A stretch of DNA of 64,000 nt from an uncultured Candidatus Saccharibacteria bacterium (GTDB taxonomy: Bacteria; Patescibacteriota; Minisyncoccia; Phycocordibacterales; UBA9973): assembly GCA_964527185.1 (NCBI GenBank), contig CAZGOI010000002.1:197532-261531 (forward strand), in the 5' to 3' direction. The notes under the pieces were generated by a model. It did not search any database. It had not been told where the DNA came from and saw only the letters and a program-made list of their open reading frames with translations. Made by a program: the position numbers and the translations under genes. Shown here piece by piece: positions 21,607-62,100 of this stretch; the stretch's first letter is position 1, and each line of letters starts with the position of its first letter.

Positions 21607-22896
21607 CTAGACTGGGAGATTAGCAGGAGGCTTGGCAATTTTAGATTCGATACGCTTAAAGCTCGGCGTCTCTGAGACCATACCTGGGAAGTGAAATATC
21701 GTTGCCAGCTCTTCGGACGACATAACAAAAATATTTGGTTTGCCCGATGGAAAGAAAGCTCTAACAATCGCAGGGTACTCAAACGCATATTGAATTGGCG
21801 GATGGAAAAATGTTCGCATGCGATAGAAATTTAGGAGTCGCTTTTTAATTTTTGTCAGAGCAAGACCTGTCGGGTCGCTCCACGGCGCATCGAATTGTGT
21901 CGAGTTAACACGATTGAGTTCATTGATATCCGGCTGGGCGTACTGCCTCCAGATTAGACGAGAAGCTCGACGGAGGTTATTGAATTGTTCTTCGCTGACT
22001 AGGCGCTTGTCTGAAAGAGTGACAACTCGAATACCGCAATCAAAGTGGATCTTGCTTTCATTGTCGGTTACGACTTTTATCAAGTGTTCCACTGGCTTTG
22101 GAGTTCGAACATCCATACCAAAAGTTTCCCCATTTTCATTTTTTTGGATACGAGTGTATGGTTTAAGAATTTGAAATTGAAATTCTTCAGCAGCTGTATA
22201 GAAATCTACGTGCTTGCCAGTTGTATGGCTGTGGTATTTTTTAATACTTTGCCTAATTATTATTTGCACCCACATTTGTTGACCTTTTGACAGCGAGCCC
22301 AGAAATTCTATAACCGGAGTTATCGGGTCGACTTTGTATTCTTCTTTGGTACCAGTATCCATTTCCTCCATATCGCGATAGGTCTTGATCGGTAGGAAAT
22401 CTTCTTTCATTTTTGAATATTCGCAACCCCACACATACCAATCACCACTTTTTGTATACTCTGGAACGTGTCTAGTATAATCATCGACTTCTACAACTTT
22501 TGCTTGTGGGTATTGGGCGTAAATTTGCGTTTCTATAAGATCTCGTACACGAGATGGAGTTCTAATAAAGAAGTGAACCCGGCCGTCGATCGAAGCAATT
22601 TCAAGTGAAAACCAAAACCACGGCGCGCCTTGAATATATTGTTCCCAGAAACCCTTGTTGCTCTGATGATAAAAGGCGTTAGAAAACACAAGTTCCATAG
22701 CCGCTGGACTCTTGATGACTTCGCGCGGAACTTGGACTTCGAGCAGGATCCATTTGATGCCCATGATGAACCTTTCTTGGCGGTAGTGGTGCCAGAGCCT
22801 AAGAGCGATAATAGAAAGAGGGATCGGCATCAGGTAGCCGATAGCGACCAGGAGGAGTTGGAGTATGTTGTGTGTAGCGAAAAAGTCCCCGACCAT
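21607..22896 (-). CDS. hypothetical membrane-anchored protein (429 aa)
   Basis: N-terminal TM; no recognisable domain; 4 nt from mltG. Confidence 0.35.
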   Translation of the reverse strand: MVGDFFATHNILQLLLVAIGYLMPIPLSIIALRLWHHYRQERFIMGIKWILLEVQVPREVIKSPAAMELVFSNAFYHQSNKGFWEQYIQGAPWFWFSLEIASIDGRVHFFIRTPSRVRDLIETQIYAQYPQAKVVEVDDYTRHVPEYTKSGDWYVWGCEYSKMKEDFLPIKTYRDMEEMDTGTKEEYKVDPITPVIEFLGSLSKGQQMWVQIIIRQSIKKYHSHTTGKHVDFYTAAEEFQFQILKPYTRIQKNENGETFGMDVRTPKPVEHLIKVVTDNESKIHFDCGIRVVTLSDKRLVSEEQFNNLRRASRLIWRQYAQPDINELNRVNSTQFDAPWSDPTGLALTKIKKRLLNFYRMRTFFHPPIQYAFEYPAIVRAFFPSGKPNIFVMSSEELATIFHFPGMVSETPSFKRIESKIAKPPANLPV

Positions 22897-40286: not shown

Positions 40287-41198
40287 ATGAATATGCAAAA
40301 CACATCACAATCGGGTGATATAAAAATGCCCAAAACAAAAACGCCTCTGGGTGTTCGACTTTTACTCTTATTGATTATTACTATCTTGTATTTTGGTATG
40401 TTTATCTTTGTTGACTGGGTGATCTGTCTTATTGTAGTCTCTGTAATATTAGCTGCTACAAACACGCTGTATTCAGTGACTACACCGGCATATCATTGTG
40501 CAATTGTATTAAACGTTTTAACCCGTGAAAAAAGAGTTGTTTATGAAGGATTCAGTCTTTTACTGCCATGGGAAAAATTACACAAGGTTATTGATCTTCG
40601 TTTTGAGCTTGCAAAAGAATGTATGAAAGAATTTCCTACTCTTGATGCGAAAATGATTGCGGAATATATTTTCACAATTCGTCCCTGCATTTCAATCGGA
40701 AATCCTGATGAAAACATTTTGCGATTTGCAAGTTATGAACCGACTGTTATTCAGAAAGGGAGTGAAGGATTCTACAGCCAAAAATTTTCCGACTATTATG
40801 GGAAAAATAGTGCAAAAGACCTTATAGACAAGGAAGCAATATGCAATTCATTATTCGGAGATGATGGCACAGCAAAAGCTGAAGAGGATATTATAAAAGC
40901 TAGATATGGTATTGAATCAGCTGTAAGATTAGTGAGCTCTAAATGGGATCAAGAAACCCAGAAGTTCAGAGATCTAATATCCGGTGCTAAATCTTTTGAT
41001 GAAGCCATTGGAATCCTGATGGGTAAAGATGGTAAAAAGATGTCGAAAGATCAGGCAATAAGAGTAGCAAAATTGATGAATTTCCCTGAAAATGTGAGGG
41101 AAGATATGTATGACGTAAAAATCGATGGCCTGAGCAACTTACGACACCTTAATGTCGTGGGTGGACTAGGTAATAAAAAACAAGGAGGTATGAAATGA
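40287..41198 (+). CDS. hypothetical membrane protein (two N-terminal TM; possible SPFH/band-7-like ectodomain)
   Basis: TM helices at residues about 20-60; weak resemblance of 'IVLNVLTREKRVVYEGFSLLLPWEKLHKVIDLR' to the start of the SPFH domain. Confidence 0.3.
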   Translation: MNMQNTSQSGDIKMPKTKTPLGVRLLLLLIITILYFGMFIFVDWVICLIVVSVILAATNTLYSVTTPAYHCAIVLNVLTREKRVVYEGFSLLLPWEKLHKVIDLRFELAKECMKEFPTLDAKMIAEYIFTIRPCISIGNPDENILRFASYEPTVIQKGSEGFYSQKFSDYYGKNSAKDLIDKEAICNSLFGDDGTAKAEEDIIKARYGIESAVRLVSSKWDQETQKFRDLISGAKSFDEAIGILMGKDGKKMSKDQAIRVAKLMNFPENVREDMYDVKIDGLSNLRHLNVVGGLGNKKQGGMK

Positions 41199-41650
41199 CA
41201 CCGAACAACGCAACAAACCAGCAACAAACACAGACACCTCAACCACTTCCTATAGAAAAAGGAAGCAAGGTGTTTATGTATGCATTTTTGGTAATTGCAA
41301 TTATCGCCACTGCTCTTCATATAAGAAGTAATATTCTTGAAAACAGAAATAAACTTCCTAAAAAGAAGAGTGGTGTGTCGACATCATATAACGGTTTTAT
41401 GCTACCCAAAGATTCCACCTACAAGTTGACCAGAGGTGACACCGTAACGGTAGAAATACCGAGTGGTGTAACTGTCTTATGTTCAAGTGGTGGGACCAGT
41501 GAACGCCCGCACAAATATTTTCACAGAAATCAAAATGATTCCTGGGAAGTATGGGGTGATGGTACGAAACACATGGGCGAGACCGGTGCTTACATTCAAA
41601 TGACGGCCTATGATACGACCATATATGTGAATTGCCAGTTTTCAAAGTAA
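41195..41650 (+). CDS. hypothetical membrane-anchored protein
   Basis: Gln/Thr-rich N-terminus, one TM 'VFMYAFLVIAIIATAL'; 4-nt overlap with the upstream gene. Confidence 0.35.
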   Translation: MTPNNATNQQQTQTPQPLPIEKGSKVFMYAFLVIAIIATALHIRSNILENRNKLPKKKSGVSTSYNGFMLPKDSTYKLTRGDTVTVEIPSGVTVLCSSGGTSERPHKYFHRNQNDSWEVWGDGTKHMGETGAYIQMTAYDTTIYVNCQFSK

Positions 41651-41674: not shown

Positions 41675-41706
41675 ACACCCCCAGATTTATTCGGGGTGTT
41701 TTTTTA
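41675..41706. terminator. bidirectional rho-independent terminator between convergent genes
   Basis: ACACCCC-AGATTTATTC-GGGGTGT followed by TTTTTTT; A-rich on the other side. Confidence 0.6.
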
Positions 41707-43173
41707 TCTAGGCGATTGCACTGCTACCCAGTAGTCGTATTTATAGACTGGTTCGTCTGGGTAATACTTTTCAATATTAGTAACAGTAAAGACTCGGTCA
41801 TTCACATAATATTTTTCTTCAGGCATAACTTTGTGGACTATGTTGTTGATGCTATGAACACCCTTCATTTTGGCAATTAGAACTAGGGCATTGTTTATGG
41901 CGATACTTCTTGCGCCGATAAATGTACTATCAACTCCCGAGCCGACAGCTCGGTAAAATTGAGCGTCTGAAACATACGTACCCTGTAGTGGGTTTGCTCT
42001 TTGGCTTTCAGATGAGGTTGCGATATCGGGCAACAAGTTGCAATCTTCTGGCTTTCCCCCATTTATCTGCGCTCTAGCATCTTGCCAGACATAATACATC
42101 TTGCCCTTGCTATCGTAAGAGACTTGGCTGCCATAGACAGTCGGCAGATTGGGATCTGCGGTCGAGTCGTCTAAGCTGTTGTCGCTGATAAATTGCTGGC
42201 GAATTTTTTTCTTTATATCCTGGAGAGTTTTATACTCTGTAGTATCTTGGGCGAGTATATCTCTATGCCAGCAAATATTCGGCTGCTCGATATATACTTT
42301 TGTGAATGGATTCGTGGTAAACGATGTGACGGGTGTGTTCGGCGCATTCGTCAGACTGAAATCTGAAGGAACGCTTATTTCCTCTACTGGTTGGCCAGGC
42401 AATTCTTTGGCTGGTTGTAACTCTTGCAATTTACAATCGTGATCTACACCCGTGCCGATCGGGGCCCGAGCGTCTATCCAGGCATAGTATTGGCCAGGCG
42501 GATTAAGAGGTGTGTCTGGGTTCGGGTTCTTGTATTTTTGATATAAGACTTCGGTTGAATATATGGTCGGGTATTTTTGTTTTGATTGGTCTTTTTCAGA
42601 TATCCCGTTAGTAGATAGGTACTTTGATCTAGCAGCCAGTTTTATTGTATTTATCGCATCAAATTCTGTCGAAGCAGTTTTGTAATCTACATAGCGCCAA
42701 CAAAGAGAGTTGTTGGCTTTGTATTGCGGAAATGGATCCGTGGTAAAAGTTTCGATTGGCCAATTTTCTGTATTTTGGGAACTTATATCAAGAAGATTCC
42801 CAAAAATATCTTTGTTGTTGTTTGGGTTGTCGGCAACATTTTTACCTACAAGATTATCGCCGTTAACAGCAAAATTTCCATTGTCGTTTATTTTTATTTT
42901 ATTCTCTCCAAAACTACTCAATATGATTTGCATTAAACCAAAAACAGCAACCATTATAAAAAGGCCGAGCACGCCCCATAGCATCTGCGACTTGGCCTTT
43001 TTTCTAACTTCTTCGTTTTGAGGAGAGAGTAAATATTGCGCCAGCCCATATATGAAATATGCGAGGGCAACTGCAAAAAGAAATATGATGATAGGATTGA
43101 TTAGAACCTTATCAATACTTTTGACTAACGTCAAAACACTAGCTTCTGCAACTGGCACAATATAAAAATGCAT
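41704..43173 (-). CDS. VirB2/TrbC-like two-helix pilin-fold protein with a large (about 400 aa) C-terminal ectodomain
   Basis: N-terminal 'INPIIIFLFAVALAYFIYGLAQYLLSPQNEEVRKKAKSQMLWGVLGLFIMVAVFGL' (helix, charged EE-KKAK loop, helix); the C-terminal region holds two internally repeated Cys-containing modules. Confidence 0.5.
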   Translation of the reverse strand: MHFYIVPVAEASVLTLVKSIDKVLINPIIIFLFAVALAYFIYGLAQYLLSPQNEEVRKKAKSQMLWGVLGLFIMVAVFGLMQIILSSFGENKIKINDNGNFAVNGDNLVGKNVADNPNNNKDIFGNLLDISSQNTENWPIETFTTDPFPQYKANNSLCWRYVDYKTASTEFDAINTIKLAARSKYLSTNGISEKDQSKQKYPTIYSTEVLYQKYKNPNPDTPLNPPGQYYAWIDARAPIGTGVDHDCKLQELQPAKELPGQPVEEISVPSDFSLTNAPNTPVTSFTTNPFTKVYIEQPNICWHRDILAQDTTEYKTLQDIKKKIRQQFISDNSLDDSTADPNLPTVYGSQVSYDSKGKMYYVWQDARAQINGGKPEDCNLLPDIATSSESQRANPLQGTYVSDAQFYRAVGSGVDSTFIGARSIAINNALVLIAKMKGVHSINNIVHKVMPEEKYYVNDRVFTVTNIEKYYPDEPVYKYDYWVAVQSPR

Positions 43174-43181
43174 TTAGTTTA

Positions 43182-43538
43182 TTAGCAAACTACACCTGGG
43201 CCTGGAATGCAAGGAATGTTGCTACCGCCCAACTGTTCAGGGCCGACACCAAAGGTGTTGGTTATGATACGGATAATTCCCCAGAAAGCAATGATGACGA
43301 ATAGCCCGATTAGACCCATGATGATCTTGTGGCGAGCCTTTTTCTTGGCCTCTTCATCGGTCGAGAGAGTGTATTGGATGACCCCCCAGATAAAGTAAAC
43401 GACTGCCAAGGTTATGAGGATTGGAATAACTGTGGCTAGGATTTTGTTGACGACCGTTAGAATACTGAAGGCATCTGCCGCAAACACCACGAATGGGGCA
43501 ACCGAGAGCGCGATACCAAAAGAAATTATTTTCTTCAT
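43182..43538 (-). CDS. VirB2/TrbC-like pilin-fold protein
   Basis: Signal peptide, then 'VIPILITLAVVYFIWGVIQYTLSTDEEAKKKARHKIIMGLIGLFVIIAFWGII'. Confidence 0.6.
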   Translation of the reverse strand: MKKIISFGIALSVAPFVVFAADAFSILTVVNKILATVIPILITLAVVYFIWGVIQYTLSTDEEAKKKARHKIIMGLIGLFVIIAFWGIIRIITNTFGVGPEQLGGSNIPCIPGPGVVC

Positions 43539-43644
43539 ATTTGTTCGCCTTTTGGGCGAAGATTAATGATAAATTAATAAACGACTTTTTCGAACCTATT
43601 TATGGGTTTATTATACCATAACATAAGACTATTTTAGCAAGGAT

Positions 43645-44028
43645 CTATTGGGAGAGCTGTGGAATCAATGTTTTAAAGCCAAAAGTGTTCGTTAGGACAT
43701 TGACCAACCCCCAGAGGCTGATCATGACAAAAAGCGCAATTAGGCCCCATATCATGAAAGTCTTGCCATTTTTTCTTTTCTCTTCATTTTCGGCATTGAT
43801 GACATATTGGATAACTCCCCAGATAAAAGCGGCGGTCGCCAAAGTGAAAAAGAAGGGTATTACTGTTTTGATAATGGTACAACTAGCCCAGTTGAAAATC
43901 TGGCCGATGCTTTTAAACGGGGCACCGATGTCTTTACAATAATCTTTCGTATCTGTTATCGTAGGAGCAGCATAGACCAAAACAGGAAGCAGGGATAAAC
44001 TTATAAGAAATATTTTTATTTTTTTCAT
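43645..44028 (-). CDS. VirB2/TrbC-like pilin-fold protein
   Basis: Signal peptide, then 'IPFFFTLATAAFIWGVIQYVINAENEEKRKNGKTFMIWGLIALFVMISLWGLV'. Confidence 0.6.
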   Translation of the reverse strand: MKKIKIFLISLSLLPVLVYAAPTITDTKDYCKDIGAPFKSIGQIFNWASCTIIKTVIPFFFTLATAAFIWGVIQYVINAENEEKRKNGKTFMIWGLIALFVMISLWGLVNVLTNTFGFKTLIPQLSQ

Positions 44029-44037
44029 AATATTTTT

Positions 44038-44595
44038 TTATTGACTTTGGCTTGTAATTTGGTCGACTGTTCCCTGTATAGCCCCAGCTATAACATAGCA
44101 GCCAAGCAACAGGGCAGCACCTATTAAAGTAGCTATTATAGTTTTTTTAGCTTTTTTGAGTTTCTCTGAATTACCTTGGGCTGTCACAAAAAGAAAGCCA
44201 GAGTATATGATGGCGAGTGTGACGATCGGCACGCCTATCAAAACTACAAAGTTTAGTATGGCTTTTATAAACGATGGTATATCTGTCGTCGAACCCCCGA
44301 GCGGATTGTTGATATGGGTGTTTATTTGATTAGTCGTACTACCGTCTGGAGTATTTTTAGTACTACCATTAGGAGTATTTGTTGTACTACCATCTGGTTT
44401 ACATTCAGATAGATTTTCTTTACCAGTAAAATCACATCCCTCAGGCATCGCAATCCCTTGTTTACTATCCCAACAAGTGCAAGGCCCTTGAGCAAAAACA
44501 GGGTGAGAATGGGAAGTAAAATTTAATATAAAAGCAAAAACAAAAATTGTGCTTAAAACTTTGGGGAGAATATTAGATTTACTTTTTTCTATCAT
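44038..44595 (-). CDS. VirB2/TrbC-like pilin-fold protein with a Cys-rich, Thr/Asn-repeat N-terminal region
   Basis: Signal peptide; 'CTCWDSK...CDF...C'; imperfect repeats 'GSTTNTPNGSTKNTPDGSTTN'; C-terminal 'VLIGVPIVTLAIIYSGFLFVTAQGNSEKLKKAKKTIIATLIGAALLLG'. Confidence 0.55.
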   Translation of the reverse strand: MIEKSKSNILPKVLSTIFVFAFILNFTSHSHPVFAQGPCTCWDSKQGIAMPEGCDFTGKENLSECKPDGSTTNTPNGSTKNTPDGSTTNQINTHINNPLGGSTTDIPSFIKAILNFVVLIGVPIVTLAIIYSGFLFVTAQGNSEKLKKAKKTIIATLIGAALLLGCYVIAGAIQGTVDQITSQSQ

Positions 44596-44610
44596 ATTAA
44601 TATTATAACA

Positions 44611-45084
44611 TTATTTGCCATTACTTTGTTGGGGCACCAAGTAATCTGGTCCTTTAAAATTAAGTGTCGTATATATAGTATGAACAATAATCCAAGCCGC
44701 CAGAGCTATAACATAACCTATGACCAAGTTTTTCAATATCTTTTTTGCCTTGTTAATATTCTCTGAACTGCCACCAGCGGTAATCAGTAGGAACCCTGCC
44801 CAGCATATAATAAGCGCAGCCAGCGGGGTGGCAACATCAATCAATAAAAAATGAATTATGTTGTTGATTAAATTAATCCCCCATGTAAAATCGCAAGGGT
44901 CACTGTATTCTGCAACGTCAATGCTATGTGTTGGGTTATTAGGATTTTGAACCGTCTTGTGAATAATTTTTGTATTACAAGTAGGAACCAATCCACCGTC
45001 GGCCTGAGCTATGCCAAAGCCAGAGAATTGTAATACTAGCGCAAGAGATAGAAAGATTATTGAATTTTTAGTTGCTTTATTCAT
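44611..45084 (-). CDS. VirB2/TrbC-like pilin-fold protein
   Basis: Signal peptide; 'LLIDVATPLAALIICWAGFLLITAGGSSENINKAKKILKNLVIGYVIALAAWII'. Confidence 0.55.
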   Translation of the reverse strand: MNKATKNSIIFLSLALVLQFSGFGIAQADGGLVPTCNTKIIHKTVQNPNNPTHSIDVAEYSDPCDFTWGINLINNIIHFLLIDVATPLAALIICWAGFLLITAGGSSENINKAKKILKNLVIGYVIALAAWIIVHTIYTTLNFKGPDYLVPQQSNGK

Positions 45085-45086
45085 GT

Positions 45087-46397
45087 TTATTTTATTATAG
45101 ATTGCATCTCGCCTTGGGCTTTGGTTATGGCATCCTCGACCGAGAGTTTATTAGATATGATGTTTTGAATTAGTTCCGAAAATATAGTATCGCTTGCATT
45201 TGGGTCTGGGTCGGCAAAGCTTCGCGAGACTATTGCTGATTTGAAAAAAGTGAAGAGATATGGGTCTGTTGGGTTTGTCGCAAGTATTTGCCGAGAAGCC
45301 GGTGGTAATGAAAGAGCGGTGCTTAGATTTTTAATATTATCCCCTCCAGCAAGCAAACCTGCCACACTAAAAGCGGCAGAAATATTTGCTGATTTTTTAT
45401 TAACAGCGATAGCGTAAATATCGGCGTCGGTACGTTTTAGGTTTGTGCCTTTTGTCTGCATAATCTGCGCAACATCAAAACTTAAATTTGGATTTATAGA
45501 TTCAATTTTAAAAAGTTCGCTGGCTCGGCCGATATAGAAAACGAGCTTGCCACCGGTAAACATATCGAGAGAATTTGGCAGAGATCTGTTCCACGAATAA
45601 GCATTGTCGGCCGGGTTTGAAAATTCTGTAAAGAAGTTTAGTATCTGGACAAATGGGGACGTCGGTGAGCTGGTTTGGTTGTTATTTAGCACAGAAACGT
45701 ATTTGCCGCCAGTGTAATCTACTATAGGATTGTTGCTCTGCAGAAGGAGCGTGGCCAAGATATCTTTTGCATGGTTTACATTGTCATAGCGACCGAGGGC
45801 GATCATGCTTTGTGAGATACTGCCGTCTGAATTCCTTTTTGTTAATTGATTGTTTAGAGAAAACAGATCGCTCCAGTATTGTGGCGGCTGCGATATGCCT
45901 TCGTTTGAAAGAAGATCTTTGTTGTAATAAAGAACAATCGGGTCAACGACGAGCGGAAAGCCGATCGCCCCATCGTCGTTTAGGTAGACACTGGCCCCAT
46001 CGATAAAAGCGTCTTGAAATGTTTTTTGCGGGTAGCTAGCATAAGGAATCTTGTAAACAAAATCTTTAAAGTGATCGATCATATCGGGGGTGACGATAAA
46101 AAGATCTGGGCCATTGCCTGCAGCAAAAGATTCTACTAGGTCTTGTGCGTATGTCAATTTATTTTTCTTTGTGTAACTTACTACCAAATCTTTGTTTGCA
46201 CTATTCATGTCTTCAAAAACTTTTTCAAATTCTGGAGTGCTATCGAAAGTTCCCCAGATTACTATTTTTCCAGTCGGAGTTGAACTACTGCTCGATGAAC
46301 CGCCGATTTTGAGCAGGCCAGAGAATATCAAAACTGCAAAGACAAAGAAGGCGATAAATATTGCAACTAAAATTGTCTGGAAATTATTCATGTACAA
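45087..46397 (-). CDS. extracellular solute-binding protein (ABC transporter SBP, family 1-like)
   Basis: N-terminal TM/lipobox-like anchor, Ser-rich linker, 'KIVIWGTFDSTPEF' start typical of sugar SBPs. Confidence 0.65.
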   Translation of the reverse strand: MYMNNFQTILVAIFIAFFVFAVLIFSGLLKIGGSSSSSSTPTGKIVIWGTFDSTPEFEKVFEDMNSANKDLVVSYTKKNKLTYAQDLVESFAAGNGPDLFIVTPDMIDHFKDFVYKIPYASYPQKTFQDAFIDGASVYLNDDGAIGFPLVVDPIVLYYNKDLLSNEGISQPPQYWSDLFSLNNQLTKRNSDGSISQSMIALGRYDNVNHAKDILATLLLQSNNPIVDYTGGKYVSVLNNNQTSSPTSPFVQILNFFTEFSNPADNAYSWNRSLPNSLDMFTGGKLVFYIGRASELFKIESINPNLSFDVAQIMQTKGTNLKRTDADIYAIAVNKKSANISAAFSVAGLLAGGDNIKNLSTALSLPPASRQILATNPTDPYLFTFFKSAIVSRSFADPDPNASDTIFSELIQNIISNKLSVEDAITKAQGEMQSIIK

Positions 46398-46911
46398 AAA
46401 TTATACCATATTGGTGCGCCGAGACATTCACATCTTCGACTTTTTTAAATCCCCTCTTTGTAAAAAGTTCTTCAGTGGTTTCATATTTGACTAGGTGCTG
46501 ATGCGATGGGCCGATGCCACCATACTTGTCGCGCCAATCGATAACCAAGACTTTACCACCCTTTTTTAAAATTCTTTTTGCTTCATCGACGAGACCGAGC
46601 TTGTCGCCCACTTGGAATAATATGTTTGTCATTATCAACCGGTCGATACTTTGATCGGCGAGTTTTGAACCATGTAGTGTCTCGACATCGCCCCAAATGC
46701 ATTCGACATTTTTAATACTTTTGTCTTTTAGTTCGGCTTCCAGGTGCTTTACCAATTCTTTTTGCACTTCTATTGCATAGACTTTACCAAAGTTGCCGAC
46801 TAATTCACTTGCGGCCATGGCATAGTATCCTCGGCCTGCGCCAAAATCGGCAACGCGCATACCCTCTCTGATTTCGAGAGGGCCGAGGTTTAATTTAGTA
46901 TGTGAAAACAT
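46384..46911 (-). CDS. class I SAM-dependent methyltransferase
   Basis: Motif I 'VADFGAGRGYYAMAASELVG'; 175 aa. Confidence 0.7.
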   Translation of the reverse strand: MFSHTKLNLGPLEIREGMRVADFGAGRGYYAMAASELVGNFGKVYAIEVQKELVKHLEAELKDKSIKNVECIWGDVETLHGSKLADQSIDRLIMTNILFQVGDKLGLVDEAKRILKKGGKVLVIDWRDKYGGIGPSHQHLVKYETTEELFTKRGFKKVEDVNVSAHQYGIIFVHE

Positions 46912-46935: not shown

Positions 46936-49380
46936 CTAGAGACAGGTGATCGAGGCAATCGAATCGCCAGGACGGAGCTTCATGATGGTCACACCTTGGG
47001 TTTGGCGGCCAGAAGTTGGGATCGATGAGAGCGGCACGCGGATGACTTGACCTTTTTGCGAAACAGCGATGATTTCATTTTCTTCGCCGACAATTTTAGC
47101 AACGATCAGTTTGCCAGTTTTCGAAGTTACTTTGGCAGTTTTGATGCCCGAGCCGCCACGTTTTTGGGTTTTGTATTCTTTGATGTTGGTTTTTTTACCG
47201 AGACCGTTTGAGCCCATAGTCAATATTGAAGGGCTGGCTTCACTTTTTCGAACTCGATCAAAACCGATGACTGAATCACCTTTTGAAAGTTTGATGGCTC
47301 GCACCCCACCAGCGGCCCGGCCCATTTCACGCACATCAGATTCCTTGAAGCGAATAGACTGACCCAAAGACGTTGCCAGCATGACATCGTCGCCTTTTGA
47401 AACTGTAATGACAGATTGTAATTCATCGCCTTTATCAAGCGAGATGGCGATCAGACCACTGCGACGGACGTCTTTAAAATTCTCAGCTTTAACTTTTTTA
47501 GCAACGCCACCCGAAGTCACCATCATTAATTGTTCGACACTTTGTTTTGTCTCTTTGTCTATCGATAAGATCGAGGTGACCTTCTCGTCGGTATCAAGCG
47601 AGATGAAATTCATGATCGATTTGCCTTTTGTCGCCCGCTTACCTTCGGGAATATCATACATTTTTATTTGGTAGGCCTTACCACGATTGGTAAAAAACAG
47701 TAGGTCGCTATGGGTATTGGCAGAGATGAGCATCGTAACAAAATCTTCCTCTTTAGTTTCTATGTCGATGACGCCGACGCCGCCACGCTTCTGGGTGCGG
47801 TATTCGCTCGGGTCTGTGCGCTTAACGTAGCCGCCCTTGGTAAAAACGAGGACTGATTCTTTCTCGGGAATCAGGTCTTCTTCGTTGATCGCTTTGACTC
47901 CGCCTTTGACGATTTTGGTTCGACGTTCGTCGCCGTATTTACTGCGGATATCTTTGAGTTCATCTGAAATAACTTTGAGCATCTTTTTTGGCGAAGCTAG
48001 AAGCTCTTCTAGTGCTTTAATCAATTCCTGTTTTTCTTTTAGTTCGAGTTCGATATTTTTTCGCTCAAGGCCAGCCAACTTTTGGAGCTTCATATCTAAA
48101 ATGGCGATGGTTTGAAGTTCTGAGAATTTAAATTCTTTCATCAAATTTGTTTTGGCGACCGTAGTGTCTTTTGAAGCGCGGATGACCGAAATGACTTTAT
48201 CGATGTGGTCGAGTGCTTTTTTTAAACCAAGTAGTATGTGTTCGCGTTCTTTTGCGCCCTTTAAGTCAAACTCTGTGCGACGACGAACAACGGTCGTACG
48301 GTGCTCGACAAAAAGACCGAGCAAGCTTTTTAGCGAGAGCGTCTGTGGCACACCGTCAACGAGTGCAACGATATTGAAATTGAAAGATTGTTCGAGTTGG
48401 GTATGTTTGTATAAATAATTTAAAATTTTCTGCGGGAAAACACCGGACTTCAAATCAATGACAATACGGATGTCTTTGGTCGATTCATCGCGCAGGCCTT
48501 TGACGCCTTCTAATTTTTTTTCTTGGACGAGCAGTGCGATCGATTCGATGAGCGCAGATTTATTTACCCGATACGGGATTGAAGTGATGATGATTTGGAA
48601 TGTTCCACTTTTTTGTTCGACGACCTCGGCTTCGCCACGTGTCACAACCCCACCACGGCCAGTCGAATAGGCGTGGAGCATATCTTGGGCGCCATAGACT
48701 ATACCACCGGTCGGAAAATCTGGGCCCTTGATGAACTCCATTAGATCTTCGGTAGTGGCATCTTTGTTGTCTATAAGATGGATAGCGGCATCGATGGTTT
48801 CAGAAAGATTGTGCGGCGGAATGTTTGTGGCCATTCCAACAGCAATGCCGAGCGTGCCATTTAACAATAAATTTGGTACAGCCGTCGGTAGGACGTTTGG
48901 CTCTTTACGTGTTTGGTCATAGTTGGGACGAAAATCTACTGTATTCTTTTCAAGATTAAGTAAAAGGAGCGATGAGAGTCTAGACATTTTTGCTTCGGTA
49001 TAACGCATAGCCGCTGGACCATCACCATCGATCGAGCCGAAATTCCCCTGCCCAGTGATGAGTGGGTAGCGATATGAAAAATCTTGAGCCATGCCGACCA
49101 TCGAATCATAGACGGCTACATCTCCATGCGGGTGATATTTACCGAGTACGTCACCGACGACGAGGGCTGACTTGCGGAATTTTGCGCTCGAACCGAGGCC
49201 TAGCTCGTTCATCGAATATAGAATGCGACGGTGGACGGGTTTCAATCCGTCACGGACGTCAGGCAAGGCGCGATCGGTAATGACCGACATAGCGTAATCG
49301 ATGAAAGATTCTTTCATCTCACTTGCAATGTTGACATCGACGATATTTACCCGTTCTTGTTTTGGTTCTTCTTTGGCCAT
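46936..49380 (-). CDS. gyrA: DNA gyrase subunit A
   Basis: '[21 protein letters not shown]', active-site Tyr region 'RYTEAKM', C-terminal beta-pinwheel repeats. Confidence 0.95.
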
Positions 49381-52933: not shown

Positions 52934-53539
52934 ATGGAAAACCAAAACACAACACCGTCACCGCAAGTAACTCCACAGAAATCAGCTCTGCGGAAGCATG
53001 CCGAGAATGCATGGGATTTGGTAAAGTTTGCAATCATCGCACTTGCAATCGTGGTACCGATACGCATGTGGGTTGCCCAACCATTTGTCGTTTCGGGCGA
53101 CTCGATGTTCCCTACTTTTCACGACGGGCAGTATCTCATCATCGATGAAATTTCATATATCCTCGGCACACCACGCCGCGGCGATGTCATAGTCTTCCAC
53201 TATCCAGCCGACCAATCACGATATTTCATAAAGCGCATCATCGGCTTGCCAAATGAAAGAGTTGAGATTAAAGATGGGGTGGTCACAATCTACAACGACC
53301 AAAATAAAAATGGCTTCACTCTAAACGAACCATATATCGATGAAAAATTTTCTGACACCAAATCATACACTCTCGGCGCCGGCCAATACTTTGTCATGGG
53401 AGACAATCGTAACCGCAGTTCAGATTCGCGCTCGTGGGGCCTGCTACCACGAAATCTAATCGTCGGCCGCGTCTACTTGAGGCTTCTGCCAACAAATACC
53501 GTCGCCTACTTGCCTGGCGCATTTAAAGAAGATAAATAA
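52934..53539 (+). CDS. lepB: signal peptidase I
   Basis: Catalytic Ser 'VSGDSMFPTF', Lys box 'KRIIGLPNE', 'GDNRNRSSDSRSWG'. Confidence 0.88.
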   Translation: MENQNTTPSPQVTPQKSALRKHAENAWDLVKFAIIALAIVVPIRMWVAQPFVVSGDSMFPTFHDGQYLIIDEISYILGTPRRGDVIVFHYPADQSRYFIKRIIGLPNERVEIKDGVVTIYNDQNKNGFTLNEPYIDEKFSDTKSYTLGAGQYFVMGDNRNRSSDSRSWGLLPRNLIVGRVYLRLLPTNTVAYLPGAFKEDK

Positions 53540-57528: not shown

Positions 57529-57532
57529 GCAT

Positions 57533-57604
57533 TCCGGAGTAGCTCAGCGGTAGAGCAGTCGCCTGTTAAGCGATTGGTCGCAGGTTCGATCCCTGCCTCC
57601 GGAG
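57533..57604 (+). tRNA. tRNA-Asn (anticodon GTT) with a U1:A72 acceptor pair; CC of CCA encoded
   Basis: Acceptor TCCGGAG/CTCCGGA, D-arm GCTC-AGCGGTA-GAGC, anticodon stem GTCGC/GCGAT with loop CTGTTAA, T-arm GCAGG-TTCGATC-CCTGC, discriminator G then CC. Confidence 0.8.
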
Positions 57605-58205
57605 CCCTATAGGTTGGTTAGAAGTTGCAAGTATCTTGTCAAAGGGAGAACGCATTGAAAACACTAGGTTTTTTCCTTCTAACTGACAGTTCTGAAGTAG
57701 AAAATTAAGAAGTTGCCTTTTTTCAGGCACTTCAGAACTCTTGAAAATCTCAAGAGCTCTTTTTGCTATGTTTAGTATTGTATTTGCAATCAAATAGAAC
57801 TCTTCATCTGCTTCAGAGTGAATACTCATATCTGTGAGAATAGCACTTTGTCTTTCTTTGAACTCTTTCAATTTTCTGTCATACATTTCATCAGTAATTC
57901 GCCTCATACGATATACCATATTCGCCTATAATATTCTCAGCTAGTTTAGTATATTTATTATTTGTTGCAGTTTGAGCTTCTCGTTTTAGTTTCTCATATC
58001 TATCAGAAATTGAGTAAACCATAGGCAGTTTTCTGAAATTAGTTTCTTTATTTTTCTCTTTTTTCAGTAGTTTTATTTTATTAACAAATGGTTTGTTTTT
58101 CAATAATTCACTAAGATAAGAAACCATTTTTGTATTGGCTTTTGATTTTTTGCCGATAAAGTAATCTGGGTATTCAATATCAGATATATCTTTCATATTA
58201 TTCAC
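57566..58205 (-). pseudogene. two overlapping out-of-frame ORFs resembling the C-terminal region of a large serine recombinase (remnant); the 3' end reads antisense through tRNA-Asn
   Basis: ORFs 57891-58205 and 57566-57919 overlap by 29 nt in different frames. The distal C-terminus 'KRQLLNFLLQNCQLEGKNLVFSMRSPF' resembles the LSR C-terminal motif, and the last 13 codons are the reverse complement of the tRNA. No catalytic N-terminal domain is present. Confidence 0.3.
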
Positions 58206-58283
58206 TTTACTTTAGTTTACAATACTTAGCAACATTTTGTTGTATAAATACGCAAATTAAGTTATAATTCAGATACAAAAATT

Positions 58284-58751
58284 ATGGATAAAAATCATCA
58301 ATTATTAGCATATTTAGCTAAAGAACATCCTTCAGCTTCTATCACAGTATTGATGAAGCTCTCTTATTTAGTTGATCTTGTAAGCGTAAAAAAATTAGGT
58401 CAAAAGATTTCTTCTTTTGATTATATTCGTTATAGTTATGGTCCATTTGCTCAAGAGGTTTATGGTATTGTTGAGGACCTAACTCTTAAAAAAATACTCG
58501 CTACAAAAAATGATTATGCAGGTGGTAGTGTTGAATATATAACTTATACATTTACTAATTCTGAAGATTTTTCTTTTGATAAATTGTCAGAAGAAGAGGT
58601 TTCTGTAATAAATGAAATGATGTCTGAACTAAAGGGCTATGGTGCTAAAACTTTAACTGAAATAGCATACAAAACTAAACCTATGGTTGGTCTAGGTGCA
58701 ACGCTTGGTGGGACTGAGGGTCTTTTCAAAAAACTTGATCTAGCTCAATAA
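58284..58751 (+). CDS. Panacea (DUF4065)-domain protein, putative antitoxin-like
   Basis: 'SITVLMKLSYLVDLVSVKKLGQKISSFDYIRYSYGPFAQEVYGIV' matches the Panacea/SocA-GepA-like core (KLxKLxY...W..GPV...Y pattern). Confidence 0.5.
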   Translation: MDKNHQLLAYLAKEHPSASITVLMKLSYLVDLVSVKKLGQKISSFDYIRYSYGPFAQEVYGIVEDLTLKKILATKNDYAGGSVEYITYTFTNSEDFSFDKLSEEEVSVINEMMSELKGYGAKTLTEIAYKTKPMVGLGATLGGTEGLFKKLDLAQ

Positions 58752-58754
58752 TAT

Positions 58755-59261
58755 ATGCAGATGCCTGAAGCGGTTACTTTGATGTATTATCATCCTAGAA
58801 ATACATTTGCTGATAAAACTTCAGAAGAAGAAAGAACGGGTGTAATCAAAAAGAAATATAAGTTGTTATTCAAACAGCATAAAGAATTAGGTCTTTATGT
58901 GTTTTTTGTTTTGACTAGTAGTCCTTCTGCTTGTGTGAAGGAAAGAATGTTTTCTATAAATAAAACAGATTGGGAAGAAAGATTAGGAAACAGCTTAGAT
59001 GCTGATTGCTCATACACTGATATTCAAAGCCATTCAGTAGTTCACGATAAAAGCGAGGTTTTAGAAAAAGCCAGTAATCCTAAAATAGGTTTTTCTTATG
59101 TGGCTAAACTATATCAATCAAAGTTCAATGAATTATCCACTGCAATAGAAAACTATCTTTCTGCTACAACAGCAAAGACGGATATTGAAAAAAGAGATTT
59201 CTTAAAAAGTATTGTTCTTGAAGATAAAGCTACAGATTTTATCAATAAGTTTAAGGTTTAG
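58755..59261 (+). CDS. hypothetical protein, candidate toxin partner of the Panacea-domain gene
   Basis: 168 aa; starts 4 nt after the Panacea ORF stop; no recognisable motif. Confidence 0.35.
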   Translation: MQMPEAVTLMYYHPRNTFADKTSEEERTGVIKKKYKLLFKQHKELGLYVFFVLTSSPSACVKERMFSINKTDWEERLGNSLDADCSYTDIQSHSVVHDKSEVLEKASNPKIGFSYVAKLYQSKFNELSTAIENYLSATTAKTDIEKRDFLKSIVLEDKATDFINKFKV

Positions 59262-59340
59262 CTTCCAGTTTGCTGTATCTTGGAAAGAAGGTCATTATTT
59301 GGCTAAAACCTAATTCTTTTTGTATTTCTTTCCAGTTTAT

Positions 59341-59401
59341 AGTTCTGAACTCGGACAATACAGGGAGCCAACTTGACTTTTATATATTTTTATGCTACTA
59401 T
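59341..59401 (+). promoter_or_regulatory. operator-like inverted repeat plus sigma-70-type promoter (module copy 1)
   Basis: IR AGTTC-T-GAACT (59341-59351); -35 TTGACT (59373-59378), 17-nt spacer, -10 TACTAT (59396-59401). Confidence 0.45.
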
Positions 59402-59517
59402 ACGAATGTAGCGGCTCTTTGATATTAATGGTTGTTTATGATTGATTTTGTTGGGTTTTCCCTACACCTTTATAGGACTAGAGAAAACTCAATAATTCAA
59501 AAACTAAAACAATTAAA

Positions 59518-59976
59518 ATGAAAAAAATTCTTGATGAAGAAATCGTAATAAGCAATATCCAATACATCTATCCTGTATTACCTACAGGAGACGAATTAAG
59601 GATTGCACTAGGTGCACTATCTCTGACCAATCAAAAATCGAACGTCAATGATGATTGCCATCCAATGATAGTTGGGTGGAACGAAAACTCCGCAGTCGAT
59701 TTTGCTGACTTTCAATGGTGGATTAAGTGCCTCATTGAAGAAAGCCATTTTATTATTGGGAAGAAGATTATCACTTTTGCAGAAAAATTAGATCTGTACC
59801 CTGAGGAAGCTTGTGGAGAACCTTCTGTCACTTTAAAATTCAAAGACGGTACAATGTTCAGAATTACACAAAGAGACATCAGCAAGCCGATTGAAGTTTG
59901 CGTACGAGGCGATGGCCCAAATTTCCTGAAGATGAAAATTAAGGAATACGGGTACACTCCTATTCCTTTCGATTAA
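59518..59976 (+). CDS. hypothetical protein (152 aa), cassette 1
   Basis: ORF preceded by the module promoter and leader, followed by a terminator hairpin. Confidence 0.4.
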   Translation: MKKILDEEIVISNIQYIYPVLPTGDELRIALGALSLTNQKSNVNDDCHPMIVGWNENSAVDFADFQWWIKCLIEESHFIIGKKIITFAEKLDLYPEEACGEPSVTLKFKDGTMFRITQRDISKPIEVCVRGDGPNFLKMKIKEYGYTPIPFD

Positions 59977-60001
59977 ATTCATCTAAAATAGAAAATAATT
60001 T

Positions 60002-60031
60002 AAGTTCCTTGCCAAAACAAGGAACTTTTTA
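60002..60031 (+). terminator. rho-independent terminator after cassette 1
   Basis: AAGTTCCTTG-CCAAAA-CAAGGAACTT followed by TTTTT. Confidence 0.65.
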
Positions 60032-60072
60032 TATACATAGCTGATATAAAGTAAAAATGTTAATATTAATTA

Positions 60073-60600
60073 ATGGAATATTTGGATATCTGTGATGAAA
60101 AAGGAAATTTGACAGGAATCAAAGCTTTGAAAAAAGAAGCTCATGAGAAAGGCCTCTGGCATAGATCAGTTCATATCTGGATTTTAAACTCAAAAAATGA
60201 ATTATTAGTGCAAAAAAGATCTCCGTTAATGGATAACCATCCTAATGAGTGGGATATTTCAGCTGCAGGGCATGTATCAGCTGGAGAAGATAACATAACT
60301 TCTGCCTTACGAGAAACCGAAGAAGAACTTGGTTTAAAACTTTCTCCTGGAAATTTTACTCTCATTGGGACTATTCAACAAAGGTCTGCGCGTGAAGGAT
60401 ATATAAATAATGAAGTAAACCCTATCTATGTTGTTAAAATGGATTTAGATCTAAGTAATATAAAAAAGCAGGTAGAAGAAGTTTCAGAAGTAAAATTTAT
60501 TCCTTATCTTGAATTGAAAAAACTTATTGATAATAAAGACCCTTATTTTGTTAAACACCCTAGTGAGTACGAACTTCTTTTCAGTTATTTATCACAATAA
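60073..60600 (+). CDS. NUDIX hydrolase
   Basis: Nudix box 'GHVSAGEDNITSALRETEEELGL' (G-x5-E-x7-REUxEExGU). Confidence 0.8.
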   Translation: MEYLDICDEKGNLTGIKALKKEAHEKGLWHRSVHIWILNSKNELLVQKRSPLMDNHPNEWDISAAGHVSAGEDNITSALRETEEELGLKLSPGNFTLIGTIQQRSAREGYINNEVNPIYVVKMDLDLSNIKKQVEEVSEVKFIPYLELKKLIDNKDPYFVKHPSEYELLFSYLSQ

Positions 60601-60633
60601 AGCCATTCTAACTTCATCCCAGGTTCGGAGCAA

Positions 60634-60670
60634 TAAACAGAAACGGCACCTTTTGGTGCCTTTTCTGTTT
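60634..60670 (+). terminator. rho-independent terminator after the NUDIX gene
   Basis: AAACAGAAACGGCACC-TTTT-GGTGCCTTTTCTGTTT. Confidence 0.75.
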
Positions 60671-60770
60671 ATCTAACTCCGGGGTAAGAAAGCAAACTAC
60701 TTTGCTTTCGACAGGGATCGAAGGATTGATAATGTTTTATTTATAAAACTATCAATCACGCGCCGTGGGC

Positions 60771-60792
60771 GAGATTCCCTGCCTCCGGAGCC
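60771..60792 (+). repeat. direct repeat of the tRNA-Asn 3' end (att-like)
   Basis: CCCTGCCTCCGGAGCC (60777-60792) is identical to tRNA-Asn 57591-57606; the upstream GAGATTC resembles the T-loop. Confidence 0.6.
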
Positions 60793-60794
60793 AG

Positions 60795-60823
60795 TTGACA
60801 AATATATTAAATTATTCTATACT
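60795..60823 (+). promoter_or_regulatory. sigma-70-type promoter (module copy 2)
   Basis: -35 TTGACA (60795-60800), 17-nt spacer, -10 TATACT (60818-60823), immediately after the tRNA-like repeat. Confidence 0.45.
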
Positions 60824-60835
60824 AGAAACAGTATC

Positions 60836-60922
60836 GTAGTTCTTTGATATTTTTTGGTTATTTAGTTGTATTTGGTGGATTATCCTTGCTTCTTTTTAGG
60901 AGGTTAAGATAATTCACTAAAT
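60836..60922 (+). repeat. conserved 87-nt leader, copy A (near-identical to 61450-61536)
   Basis: GTAGTTCTTTGATATTTTTTGGTTATTTAGTTGTATTTGGTGGATTATCCTTGCTTCTTTTTAGGAGGTTAAGATAATTCACTAAAT, with 1 substitution relative to copy B. Confidence 0.7.
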
Positions 60923-60947
60923 AATTCACAATTAAATACCAAAAAAA

Positions 60948-61229
60948 ATGGATGCAAATCAATTTCCCAACGACAACGATTTAGTTAATCCTGAAGACCC
61001 TTACTCACCAACCGAAAAAGAGGTTCGTGAATATATGGAAATGGGATATAGTCGTTCAGGTGCAATATCTTCACTCACCACAACCAAAAAAAATCGTGAA
61101 GAAGAATACGACCCTTTTCAGGAAGGTGATGCTGAGGAAATGGATGCAATTCGTAACCCCCATGTATCAATGGAGGGTATGATGTTAAAAGTTAATCAGC
61201 ACTATGGACCACCTTCAAATGAGGACTAA
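60948..61229 (+). CDS. hypothetical acidic protein (93 aa) with a UBA-like motif, cassette 2
   Basis: 'EVREYMEMGYSRSGAISSL' resembles the UBA helix-1/2 consensus (..L.eMGF.r..a..AL); Asp/Glu-rich. Confidence 0.35.
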   Translation: MDANQFPNDNDLVNPEDPYSPTEKEVREYMEMGYSRSGAISSLTTTKKNREEEYDPFQEGDAEEMDAIRNPHVSMEGMMLKVNQHYGPPSNED

Positions 61230-61244
61230 GTCATTTTTATTTAA

Positions 61245-61288
61245 AGCCCTAAGCTTTGTAGAAAAACTCTACTTGCTAGGGCTTTTTC
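61245..61288 (+). terminator. rho-independent terminator after cassette 2
   Basis: AGCCCTAAGC ... GCTAGGGCT followed by TTTTT. Confidence 0.6.
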
Positions 61289-61296
61289 TATATTAT

Positions 61297-61417
61297 GAGT
61301 TCTGAAGTGTTCATCATTTGAAACATCTCAAAAATATTACTAAACTCAATATCTCTTTTAATTTGAACCCAGTTAAGAGTTCTGAACTCATCCACTAGTG
61401 GGAGCAAATACTTGACT
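61297..61417 (+). repeat. inter-cassette repeat (about 120 nt) carrying the IR operator and the -35 (copy 1)
   Basis: Starts TGAGTTCTGAAG, contains CATCTCAAAAATATTACTAAACTCAATATCTCTTTTAATTTGAACCCAGTTAAGAGTTCTGAACTCATCCACTAGTGGGAGCAAATACTTGACT. It is closely similar to 62101-62215. Confidence 0.6.
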
Positions 61418-61440
61418 TTTTATATATTTTATGCTATCAT
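61378..61440 (+). promoter_or_regulatory. operator-like inverted repeat plus promoter (module copy 3)
   Basis: IR GAGTTC-T-GAACTC (61378-61390); -35 TTGACT (61412-61417), 17-nt spacer, -10 TATCAT (61435-61440). Confidence 0.45.
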
Positions 61441-61449
61441 GCTCAGGTA

Positions 61450-61536
61450 GTAGTTCTTTGATATTTTTTGGTTATTTAGTTGTATTTGGTGGATTATCCT
61501 TGCTTCTTTTTTGGAGGTTAAGATAATTCACTAAAT
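61450..61536 (+). repeat. conserved 87-nt leader, copy B
   Basis: Near-identical to 60836-60922. Confidence 0.7.
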
Positions 61537-61559
61537 ATAAACAATTAAATAATCAAAAG

Positions 61560-62039
61560 ATGAACATAAGTAACAGAACAAAGAAGTATGCCGAGATGTT
61601 GAACTATCAAGGTCATAGGCATCCAGTAATTAAGGCATTGATAGTTGTTTTTGAAATACTTGATGATTACACAAGTAGAGTAAAAGCAGGAGAAGACGGA
61701 GACCGTTTTCTTTCAATGTTGGGAGGGCTGGAAAAAGCAGATAGGCAGAGTTTGGTCAAAAAAAGCAATCGTGCTTTCTGGGGACAGGGACATTTCACCA
61801 GCGAAAATACGTCAGAATTATTTGCTCTCATCGGAGTAACTGATGAAAAAGCAAAAGTTTTTGAAGGATATGATTTCATATGGGAAATATTTAGCTCAAA
61901 AGGAAATACTCCCGAAGAAATATTTTCAAATATGAGAACGGCTATGTCACCTCCTGCCAGATTCTTGTTGGAACAAACCTATGATTCCTTCAAGAATGAA
62001 ATGATTACAATGTATTATCGTTACTTCCAAGTAAGGTAA
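61560..62039 (+). CDS. hypothetical protein (159 aa), cassette 3
   Basis: ORF with the module promoter and leader upstream and a strong terminator downstream. Confidence 0.4.
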   Translation: MNISNRTKKYAEMLNYQGHRHPVIKALIVVFEILDDYTSRVKAGEDGDRFLSMLGGLEKADRQSLVKKSNRAFWGQGHFTSENTSELFALIGVTDEKAKVFEGYDFIWEIFSSKGNTPEEIFSNMRTAMSPPARFLLEQTYDSFKNEMITMYYRYFQVR

Positions 62040-62043
62040 AAAC

Positions 62044-62099
62044 AAATCCGCTTCAGTAGAAGGAAAATCCCTTCATTAAACTGAAGCGGATTTTCTTTT
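62044..62099 (+). terminator. rho-independent terminator after cassette 3
   Basis: 14-bp perfect stem AAATCCGCTTCAGT ... ACTGAAGCGGATTT followed by TCTTTT. Confidence 0.75.
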
Positions 62100-62100
62100 A

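Follow-up and report, generated by a model that had tools for sequence, protein, structure and literature searches.

The 64-kb window analysed here (the whole stretch of DNA under study, from contig CAZGOI010000002.1 of an uncultured Candidatus Saccharibacteria bacterium) carries on its minus strand, at 41704-45084, five co-directional open reading frames (ORFs) in tandem, which an initial annotation, made from the letters of the sequence, had described as paralogous genes for two-helix pilins. We confirmed all five ORFs at these coordinates, and number their products members 1 to 5 in the order of transcription (aa, amino acids; the arrow marks the predicted signal-peptide cleavage site):

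44611-45084, minus strand: member 1, 157 aa; Sec-type signal peptide ending ...GIAQA↓DGG, N-terminal extracellular segment with a Cys pair, pilin domain at residues 72-136
44038-44595, minus strand: member 2, 185 aa; signal peptide ending ...PVFA↓QGP, Cys-rich segment, S/T/N-rich tandem repeat, pilin domain at residues 104-172
43645-44028, minus strand: member 3, 127 aa; signal peptide ending ...LVYA↓APT, N-terminal Cys pair, pilin domain at residues 61-112
43182-43538, minus strand: member 4, 118 aa (about 98 aa after predicted cleavage at ...VVFA↓ADA); minimal pilin with a C-terminal Cys loop, IPCIPGPGVVC
41704-43173, minus strand: member 5, 489 aa; hairpin followed by a C-terminal extension of about 400 aa
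42889-43173, minus strand: pilin domain of member 5 (residues 1-95), without a canonical signal peptide

The gaps between these genes are, in order, 15, 9, 106 and 8 nt, and a local pilin hidden Markov model found no sixth pilin-like ORF in the window.

In all five products, hydropathy and alignment show a pair of hydrophobic helices with a short loop between them, first acidic and then basic (E/EE...K/R-rich), which is the shared architecture that the initial annotation had noticed. Identity among members 3, 4 and 5 is 36-42% (E values from 1e-17 to 1e-25), and between members 1 and 2 it is 33% (E 6e-12); the 1/2 and 3/4/5 subgroups are weakly linked to each other, and identity across the paralogs of the array ranges from 20 to 42%. 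Given these mutual identities and E values, the five are true paralogs, not chance hydrophobic ORFs. Against PF18895 (T4SS_pilin), the Pfam model for pilins of type IV secretion systems (T4SSs), members 1 to 4 score 41.3, 31.3, 30.5 and 39.0 bits, all past the gathering cut-off of 26.6 bits. Member 5 reaches 21.8 bits (residues 29-83), under that cut-off, and is tied to the family via its 36-41% identity with members 4 and 3. Member 4 also passes the curated cut-off of 40 bits of NCBIfam NF045849 (Mbov_0395, pilin-like conjugal transfer protein) with 41.2 bits, while members 5, 3, 1 and 2 stay under it (32.0, 30.5, 20.8 and 20.2 bits). The array moreover corresponds to what Quinonero-Coronel et al. 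(2025, PMC12102498) define as a Patescibacteria VirB2 array, that is, two or more PF18895/PF04956-type genes in tandem or with one gene between them; here, five stand in tandem.

These comparisons support the assignment of the five products to the T4SS-type (VirB2-like) pilin family PF18895, with their assembly into a pilus being itself a prediction. A profile search against T4SS-pilin and TrbC models had been proposed as a check of the VirB2/TrbC-like label given in the initial annotation. The T4SS-pilin half of that label stood, with four members past the PF18895 cut-off and the fifth joined to them by identity, but the TrbC half did not, since no member reached the cut-off of PF04956. The initial claim that these are T4SS-type pilins rather than type IV pilins agrees with the PF18895 scores and with the leaders: we considered a type IV (PilA-type) pilin and rejected it on inspection of the translations, which contain no class III leader (G↓F/M-x-x-x-E), have AxA-type Sec leaders in members 1 to 4, and have two helices each.

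We scanned one genome per GTDB species and obtained 191 relatives of members 3 and 4, of which 80 were kept. The kept loci (given here as L-numbers, L004, L007 and so on to L088) are mostly in metagenome-assembled genomes titled Paceibacteria, Nomurabacteria or Parcubacteria, and some are in third-party annotation (TPA) assemblies labelled 'uncultured Candidatus Saccharibacteria'. From these titles we assign the chromosome that carries the window to the Paceibacteria, a class of Patescibacteria. In L004 and L007 the best match of each window protein is the gene at the same position, and reciprocally, with identities of 41-44%, 50-51%, 69-71%, 75-83% and 45-47% for positions 1 to 5. When the pilin-like ORFs of the related loci were typed by best match, the order 1-2-3-4-5 was exact in 63 of 81; the remaining loci are either cut by contig ends or have one extra copy. 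Since five orthologous groups hold the same order in these loci, the five cores are ancient orthologous groups in a kept order and not recently diversifying copies. It had initially been suggested that the array reflects diversification of a surface-exposed appendage. This is correct for the appended ectodomains described below, which vary between species, but not for the five cores, which are stable orthologous groups.

Member 4 is the smallest and the most conserved of the five (median identity of 60% over 80 loci). It is also the only member preceded by its own promoter-like site, which can be read from the sequence of the 106-nt gap ahead of its gene:

43610-43640, minus strand: promoter-like site before member 4; -35-like TTGCTA at 43640-43635 and extended -10 TGgTATAAT at 43618-43610

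The spacing from TTGCTA to TGgTATAAT is 19 nt. TGnTAnAAT is found in 62 of the 80 related loci, and in an alignment of 74 of these loci it stands out as conserved columns of the consensus. Members 3 and 4 are separated by a median of 121 nt in relatives, compared with 6-26 nt for the remaining gaps. By these comparisons, a conserved and dedicated extended -10 promoter is predicted before member 4. Because it is the smallest and most conserved member and has a promoter of its own, we infer that member 4 is the candidate major subunit. A C-terminal Cx(5-9)C is present in 52 of 86 member-4 proteins, within the motif I-P-C-I-P-x-P-x-x-G-x-x-C (43182-43214 in the window), and probably forms a small, exposed disulfide loop at the end of the protein.

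The 5′ leader of member 4 has a further feature. Single-sequence folding anchored on the GGTCG motif gave a hairpin in 54 of 71 related loci (for example, L004:9528-9623, and the equivalent gaps between members 3 and 4 of L007-L088), with a conserved GGUCG in the apical loop, stems that vary widely with apparent compensatory changes, and a conserved TATTAT box after it. The corresponding part of the window (43539-43609) is without this hairpin and has instead a small stem, CTTCGCC-caaaa-GGCGAAC, just ahead of the start codon. No Rfam family was found in the leaders, and RNAalifold gave no consensus structure from their poor alignment. The hairpin may be an undescribed cis-regulatory RNA.

The strong differences in N- and C-terminal extensions pointed out in the initial annotation are also real, and comprise Cys pairs, S/T/N-rich repeats and a repeat ectodomain in the window, as well as FN3/Ig-like N-terminal domains on member 1 or 2 of relatives. 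At least two Cys residues are present in 73 of 74 orthologs of member 1. Member 2 has four N-terminal Cys residues and a DNA repeat at 44329-44397 (period of 24 nt, 2.9 copies by Tandem Repeats Finder) that encodes (PDGSTTNT)-like units. Member 5 begins with an 11-residue leader, M-x-F-x-I-V-P-V-A-E-A (43141-43173), which is conserved in homologs; it resembles only the C-terminal end of a signal peptide, AxA site included. An AlphaFold2 model of full-length member 5, based on 4 sequences and with a predicted local distance difference test score (pLDDT) of 40, places helices at residues 25-49 and 54-89. The extension that follows divides into three parts:

42424-42783, minus strand: ectodomain repeat 1 of member 5, residues ~131-250, with Cys158-Cys247
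42019-42363, minus strand: ectodomain repeat 2 of member 5, residues ~271-385, with Cys301-Cys378; predicted beta-alpha-beta-beta fold
41707-42006, minus strand: C-terminal domain of member 5, residues ~390-489; second, related beta-alpha-beta-beta domain without Cys in the AlphaFold2 model

Repeats 1 and 2, of about 115 aa and with one Cys pair each, are 29% identical (E 1e-17), and the Cys and Trp residues are invariant in the family alignment. Residues 269-489, modelled with 24 family sequences, gave two beta-alpha-beta-beta domains with a mean pLDDT of 87.3. The model had no significant neighbour in the PDB, the best matches being dodecin 3onr (E 0.016, target-normalised TM score of 0.51) and Helicobacter pylori HP1454 (E 0.22). 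Few proteins have this ectodomain: it was found in 4 of 5.8 billion protein clusters and in 46 of 1.84 billion representatives. Among the members inspected, it is with few exceptions fused to a member-5-type hairpin. Member 5 bears it C-terminally in ~30 loci, with 1-5 detectable copies in relatives, and in L049, L050 and L055 member 1 also bears it N-terminally. In loci with a short member 5 (~107 aa), a long N-terminal extension is often present on member 1 or 2; that of L053 contains a significant FN3 match (31 bits), and other extensions give weaker FN3-like matches. Throughout, the extra domains of the array proteins are confined to N or C termini, which, together with the Cys pairs, fits proteins whose basic loop lies inside and whose two termini lie outside. 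Judged from sequence, the extensions look surface-exposed.

Upstream of the array and on the same strand lie three genes:

45087-46397, minus strand: membrane-anchored extracellular solute-binding protein (SBP), family 1/8, MalE/UgpB-like (PF13416, 64 bits; PF01547, 62 bits)
46384-46911, minus strand: small class-I S-adenosylmethionine-dependent methyltransferase (PF13847, 59.5 bits)
46936-49380, minus strand: gyrA (PF00521/PF03989), head of a conserved co-directional block

Between the end of the SBP gene and member 1 lie 2 nt, the methyltransferase and SBP genes overlap by 14 nt, and 24 nt separate gyrA from the methyltransferase gene, so that the tight co-orientation of the SBP and methyltransferase genes reported initially was found again. 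The SBP gene adjoins the array (within 200 nt) in 72 related loci and is present in every locus with enough upstream DNA; its orthologs are 58-71% identical (among the best 120 matches, all at least 58%). Of 82 loci, 70 have the methyltransferase gene upstream and 69 have gyrA there, and in L068 the methyltransferase, SBP and array are kept together with gyrA absent. We refer to the five array genes, in the window and in relatives, as the cassette. No ABC permease or ATPase gene was found beside the SBP gene in the window or in relatives, where its downstream neighbours are the pilin genes. We also considered a fusion of SBP to pilin (a Rosetta stone) and rejected it, as the long N-terminal extensions that relatives have on members 1 and 2 show no match to SBP. 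A near-consensus sigma-70-like sequence, TTGACA-16-TAGAAT (11 of 12 matches), lies within the 5′ coding part of the SBP gene (46130-46157, minus strand).

Tandem VirB2-like genes in Patescibacteria are already known as a kind, having been published by Wang et al. (2023, PMC10633639) and by Quinonero-Coronel et al. (2025, PMC12102498). Candidatus Southlakia epibionticum has a series of predicted pilins inside its essential T4SS cluster, SEML1_0006-0019 (PMC10633639), which a 2025 review counts as six (PMC12857230). As in that bacterium, we find tandem, divergent but structurally similar two-helix genes on the chromosome of a monoderm member of the Patescibacteria. However, the Southlakia pilins lie inside the T4SS cluster and are essential by transposon sequencing, whereas the array described here belongs to Paceibacteria, is detached from T4SS genes and linked to methyltransferase, SBP and gyrA, has five members instead of six, and includes one with an ectodomain of ~400 aa. 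The census of PMC12102498 lists 441 arrays of 2-11 PF18895/PF04956-type genes in 383 Patescibacteria assemblies, with a mean identity of 25%, finds them most abundant in Microgenomatia and Saccharimonadia, suggests a role in host-range versatility, and places the pilin family near virB4 in 1135 assemblies. Our array shares with them the Pfam family, the tandem layout and the low identity of paralogs; that study, however, was centred on virB4 proximity and mentions neither gyrA nor an SBP. In Wang et al. and in Quinonero-Coronel et al. we did not find the fixed and ordered five-member set, linked to a methyltransferase and an SBP and detached from the T4SS, nor the conserved promoter before member 4 or the rare ectodomain of member 5.

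Other comparisons give a similar mixture. With the VirB2/TrbC/TraA pilins of diderm bacteria the array proteins share the predicted signal peptide, the pair of hydrophobic helices with a short basic loop, and the predicted position of both termini on the outer side; unlike them, our proteins score under the PF04956 cut-off (20-23 against 27.9 bits), have no adjoining VirB machinery, belong to a monoderm, and can have much larger terminal extensions. Monoderm cells normally have no conjugative pili. The Mbov_0395 family (NF045849) of the integrative and conjugative elements (ICEs) of Mycoplasma also consists of small two-helix proteins from a wall-less or monoderm lineage, and member 4 passes its model; the other four members, however, reach only 20-32 bits, and their genes are in the core chromosome, not in an ICE. 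The tandem virB2 paralogs of Anaplasma and the trwL copies of Bartonella are also several divergent VirB2-type genes in a row, but they are thought to be variable surface antigens beside a T4SS, while the array here is made of five stable and ordered orthologous groups.

Three cassette-carrying relatives (the genomes of L073, L035 and L069) are VirB4-positive in published tables (PMC12102498), which indicates that the lineage has a T4SS, far from the cassette. RAAC4_OD1_1 (L073) has VirB6, VirB3, TrsD, VirB4 and a PF18895 VirB2 at genes 531-537, and a PrgF (FATA_PrgF) call at gene 287, marked 'not near VirB4' and the sole such entry outside the VirB4 cluster (PMC12102498, Table S3); by its number, gene 287 is probably a member of the cassette. 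In Nomurabacteria GWE2_34_25 (L035), VirB4 is at gene 546, and VirB2/PrgF/PrgF calls not near VirB4 are at genes 787-789, a trio which may be part of the cassette; GWD2_36_14 (L069) has VirB3, VirB4 and VirB2 at genes 683-688 (PMC12102498). Where gene numbers permit an estimate, T4SS and cassette are more than 240 genes apart. The CONJScan prgF profile used in PMC12102498 flags genes at the approximate position of the cassette in relatives, and our five-member profile showed no likeness to pCF10 PrgF in hhalign (probability 0.2%, E 0.34). All five cassette pilin genes of RAAC4_OD1_1 (L073:8720-10695) score 31-41 bits with PF18895, past the gathering cut-off, so the published census appears to under-report the genes of the cassette. 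Arrays that are not beside virB4 seem to be under-counted in Paceibacteria by virB4-centred censuses.

On balance we lean, from what the sequences suggest, towards the explanation that the VirB2-fold subunits encoded by the cassette make up a heteromeric surface filament or display structure, with member 4 as its core and the other four as accessory subunits, assembled by the distant T4SS and with the SBP at the same surface. Once inserted into the membrane, each hairpin would have its loop on the cytoplasmic side and its two termini on the outside, and signal peptidase would remove the leaders. Member 4 would be the abundant major subunit, and members 1, 2, 3 and 5 would be low-copy accessory subunits that display stalk or adhesin modules toward the host cell. 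In the window, such modules would be the Cys-containing, S/T/N-rich segment of member 2 and the ectodomain of beta-alpha-beta-beta repeats of member 5; in relatives, they would be the FN3-like domains. A distant chromosomal T4SS of monoderm type (VirB4/VirB6/VirB3/TrsD), known from relatives, would most plausibly power membrane extraction and polymerisation. The SBP, presumably co-transcribed, would act on this same surface towards the host, either by capturing nutrients or by serving as a structural partner. Participation of a T4SS appears to be favoured by the presence of the family inside the essential T4SS cluster of Southlakia, by its proximity to virB4 elsewhere, by the VirB4-positive relatives, and by the signal peptidase I gene in the window (52934-53539).

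Several observations weigh against this explanation. As the initial annotation had stated, no VirB4, VirB6 or VirD4 is encoded among the scanned or annotated ORFs of at least 110 aa in the window (Pfam; ~9.8-13.5 kb, a presumed ribosomal-protein block, and ~18.2-19.8 kb lie outside the scan), and the same ORFs include no relaxase family. Flank-gene clustering and Pfam likewise revealed no T4SS genes within 10 kb of the cassette in the 80 related species; of the flanking Walker-A proteins, one was scanned and is ClpB and most were not scanned, and other flank clusters are IF-2 and a serine recombinase. The T4SS clusters of RAAC4_OD1_1 and GWD2_36_14 have their own adjacent PF18895 VirB2, and the cassette may therefore not be the pilin of that T4SS. 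The TrbC/VirB2 model PF04956 stays below its cut-off for members 1 and 2 (22.7 and 20.3 bits) and does not match members 3 to 5. In a sequence search with the five-member profile, no solved T4SS pilin in the PDB was matched, and the best matches were hairpins of G protein-coupled receptors (TM5-loop-TM6, E ~1e-3), which we call spurious and which indicate that the hairpin signal is generic. Finally, a set of five paralogs conserved this strictly looks as much like the parts of a fixed complex as like those of a filament.

This last point leads to an alternative that we regard as rather unlikely, though as the main rival: the five hairpins (ten helices) and the SBP would form a fixed hetero-oligomeric membrane complex, independent of a T4SS and without a filament, for uptake of or attachment to host material. 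The constancy of the SBP beside the array, and the survival of the methyltransferase-SBP-array unit in the locus without gyrA, are what such a complex would be expected to leave, and strict 1:1 orthology in a fixed order is typical of complex subunits. It would also suit the position of the cassette, never beside T4SS genes, the VirB2 that relatives' T4SS clusters can have for themselves, and an SBP with no ABC permease or ATPase as a neighbour in the window. However, the cluster contains no energising or channel-like protein, the sole known functional context of the family is the T4SS, and no SBP-pilin fusion was found. Large FN3-like or repeat ectodomains and a small subunit with a separate promoter suit a display filament better. 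Gene order in the reduced genomes of the candidate phyla radiation (CPR) can, in addition, persist without functional coupling; gyrA lies in the same block. In one specific form of this alternative, which seems to us unlikely, the methyltransferase, the SBP and the five hairpins would by themselves make up an envelope apparatus of Paceibacteria, independent of a T4SS, in which reused VirB2-fold subunits build a fixed hetero-oligomeric structure at the surface or in the membrane and work with an orphan SBP to capture host material; if true, CPR bacteria would have a new type of machine for acquisition or attachment.

We consider it improbable that the five are interchangeable major pilins serving antigenic or host-range variation, as has been proposed for the VirB2 arrays of Bartonella and Anaplasma. 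Paralogs that are just 20-42% identical, an ectodomain whose copy number (1-5) and position vary between species, and the proposal of host-range versatility for such arrays in PMC12102498 would be in keeping with it. The stable orthology disfavours it: dozens of species have 1:1 orthologs at the same positions, at 41-83% identity against 20-42% for paralogs, nothing indicates that genes have been turned over or converted, or that copy number has changed other than by single duplicates in a few loci, and one member alone, member 4, is preceded by a predicted promoter of its own. A remnant of an integrated conjugative element, or a set of unrelated small membrane proteins without a shared function, is very improbable and largely refuted by synteny, conservation and scores, for although the best NCBIfam match is a Mycoplasma ICE pilin-like protein and the profile also matches unrelated transmembrane (TM) hairpins, the genes are part of a block of core housekeeping genes (gyrA, S1, FtsZ/FtsA, G6PD) with synteny across ~70 species, window and flank scans found no relaxase, integrase or coupling protein nearby, tblastn of member 1 against 72,556 plasmids found no match, the paralogy is significant, and the PF18895 scores pass the cut-off.

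Patescibacteria depend on host cells, and a T4SS with a series of pilins is essential in the sole species of the group that is genetically tractable. For the question of what such pilins build, and why there are several, the cassette offers a cleaner system, with five stable groups, a candidate major subunit with its promoter, variable adhesin-like modules on outward termini, and an invariant SBP partner. A heteromeric surface filament or display structure of this kind yields predictions on stoichiometry, surface display, T4SS dependence and the ligand of the SBP.

Downstream, the array faces a convergent gene pair:

40287-41650, plus strand: convergent downstream pair, consisting of a 303-aa SPFH/Band-7-like membrane protein (40287-41198) and a 151-aa protein with a single TM segment (41195-41650)

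At the same convergent position in other loci are proteins of 346 and 376 aa, which score 18.8-22.5 bits with Band_7, under its cut-off of 23.6. Homologs of the 151-aa protein, possibly NfeD-like, are convergent and at most 2.5 kb downstream in 42 of 58 loci. The pair is probably context and not part of the system.

Elsewhere the window contains housekeeping genes, namely dnaK/dnaJ/grpE, mreB, ftsA/ftsZ, gyrA, aminoacyl-tRNA synthetases, glucose-6-phosphate dehydrogenase (G6PD) and signal peptidase I. The flanks in relatives encode SPFH-like and small membrane proteins (convergent), NTP-transferase, thioredoxin reductase, FtsZ/FtsA, IF-2 and ClpB. Two adjacent ORFs of 449 and 392 aa without a Pfam match (13981-15330 and 15339-16517, minus strand) lie between the block presumed from gene sizes to encode ribosomal proteins and alaS. 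A 429-aa protein encoded at 21607-22896 has only a weak match to DUF8128, and a PaaX-like protein with a Cas2-like middle domain is encoded at 8661-9203, among housekeeping genes. In the region 57532-62100, a stretch of low GC content (0.32-0.34 against ~0.41) follows directly on tRNA-Asn (57532-57607). It contains a gene with a SocA/Panacea antitoxin domain (58284-58751), a NUDIX gene and several ORFs without a Pfam match, and may be an integrated island.

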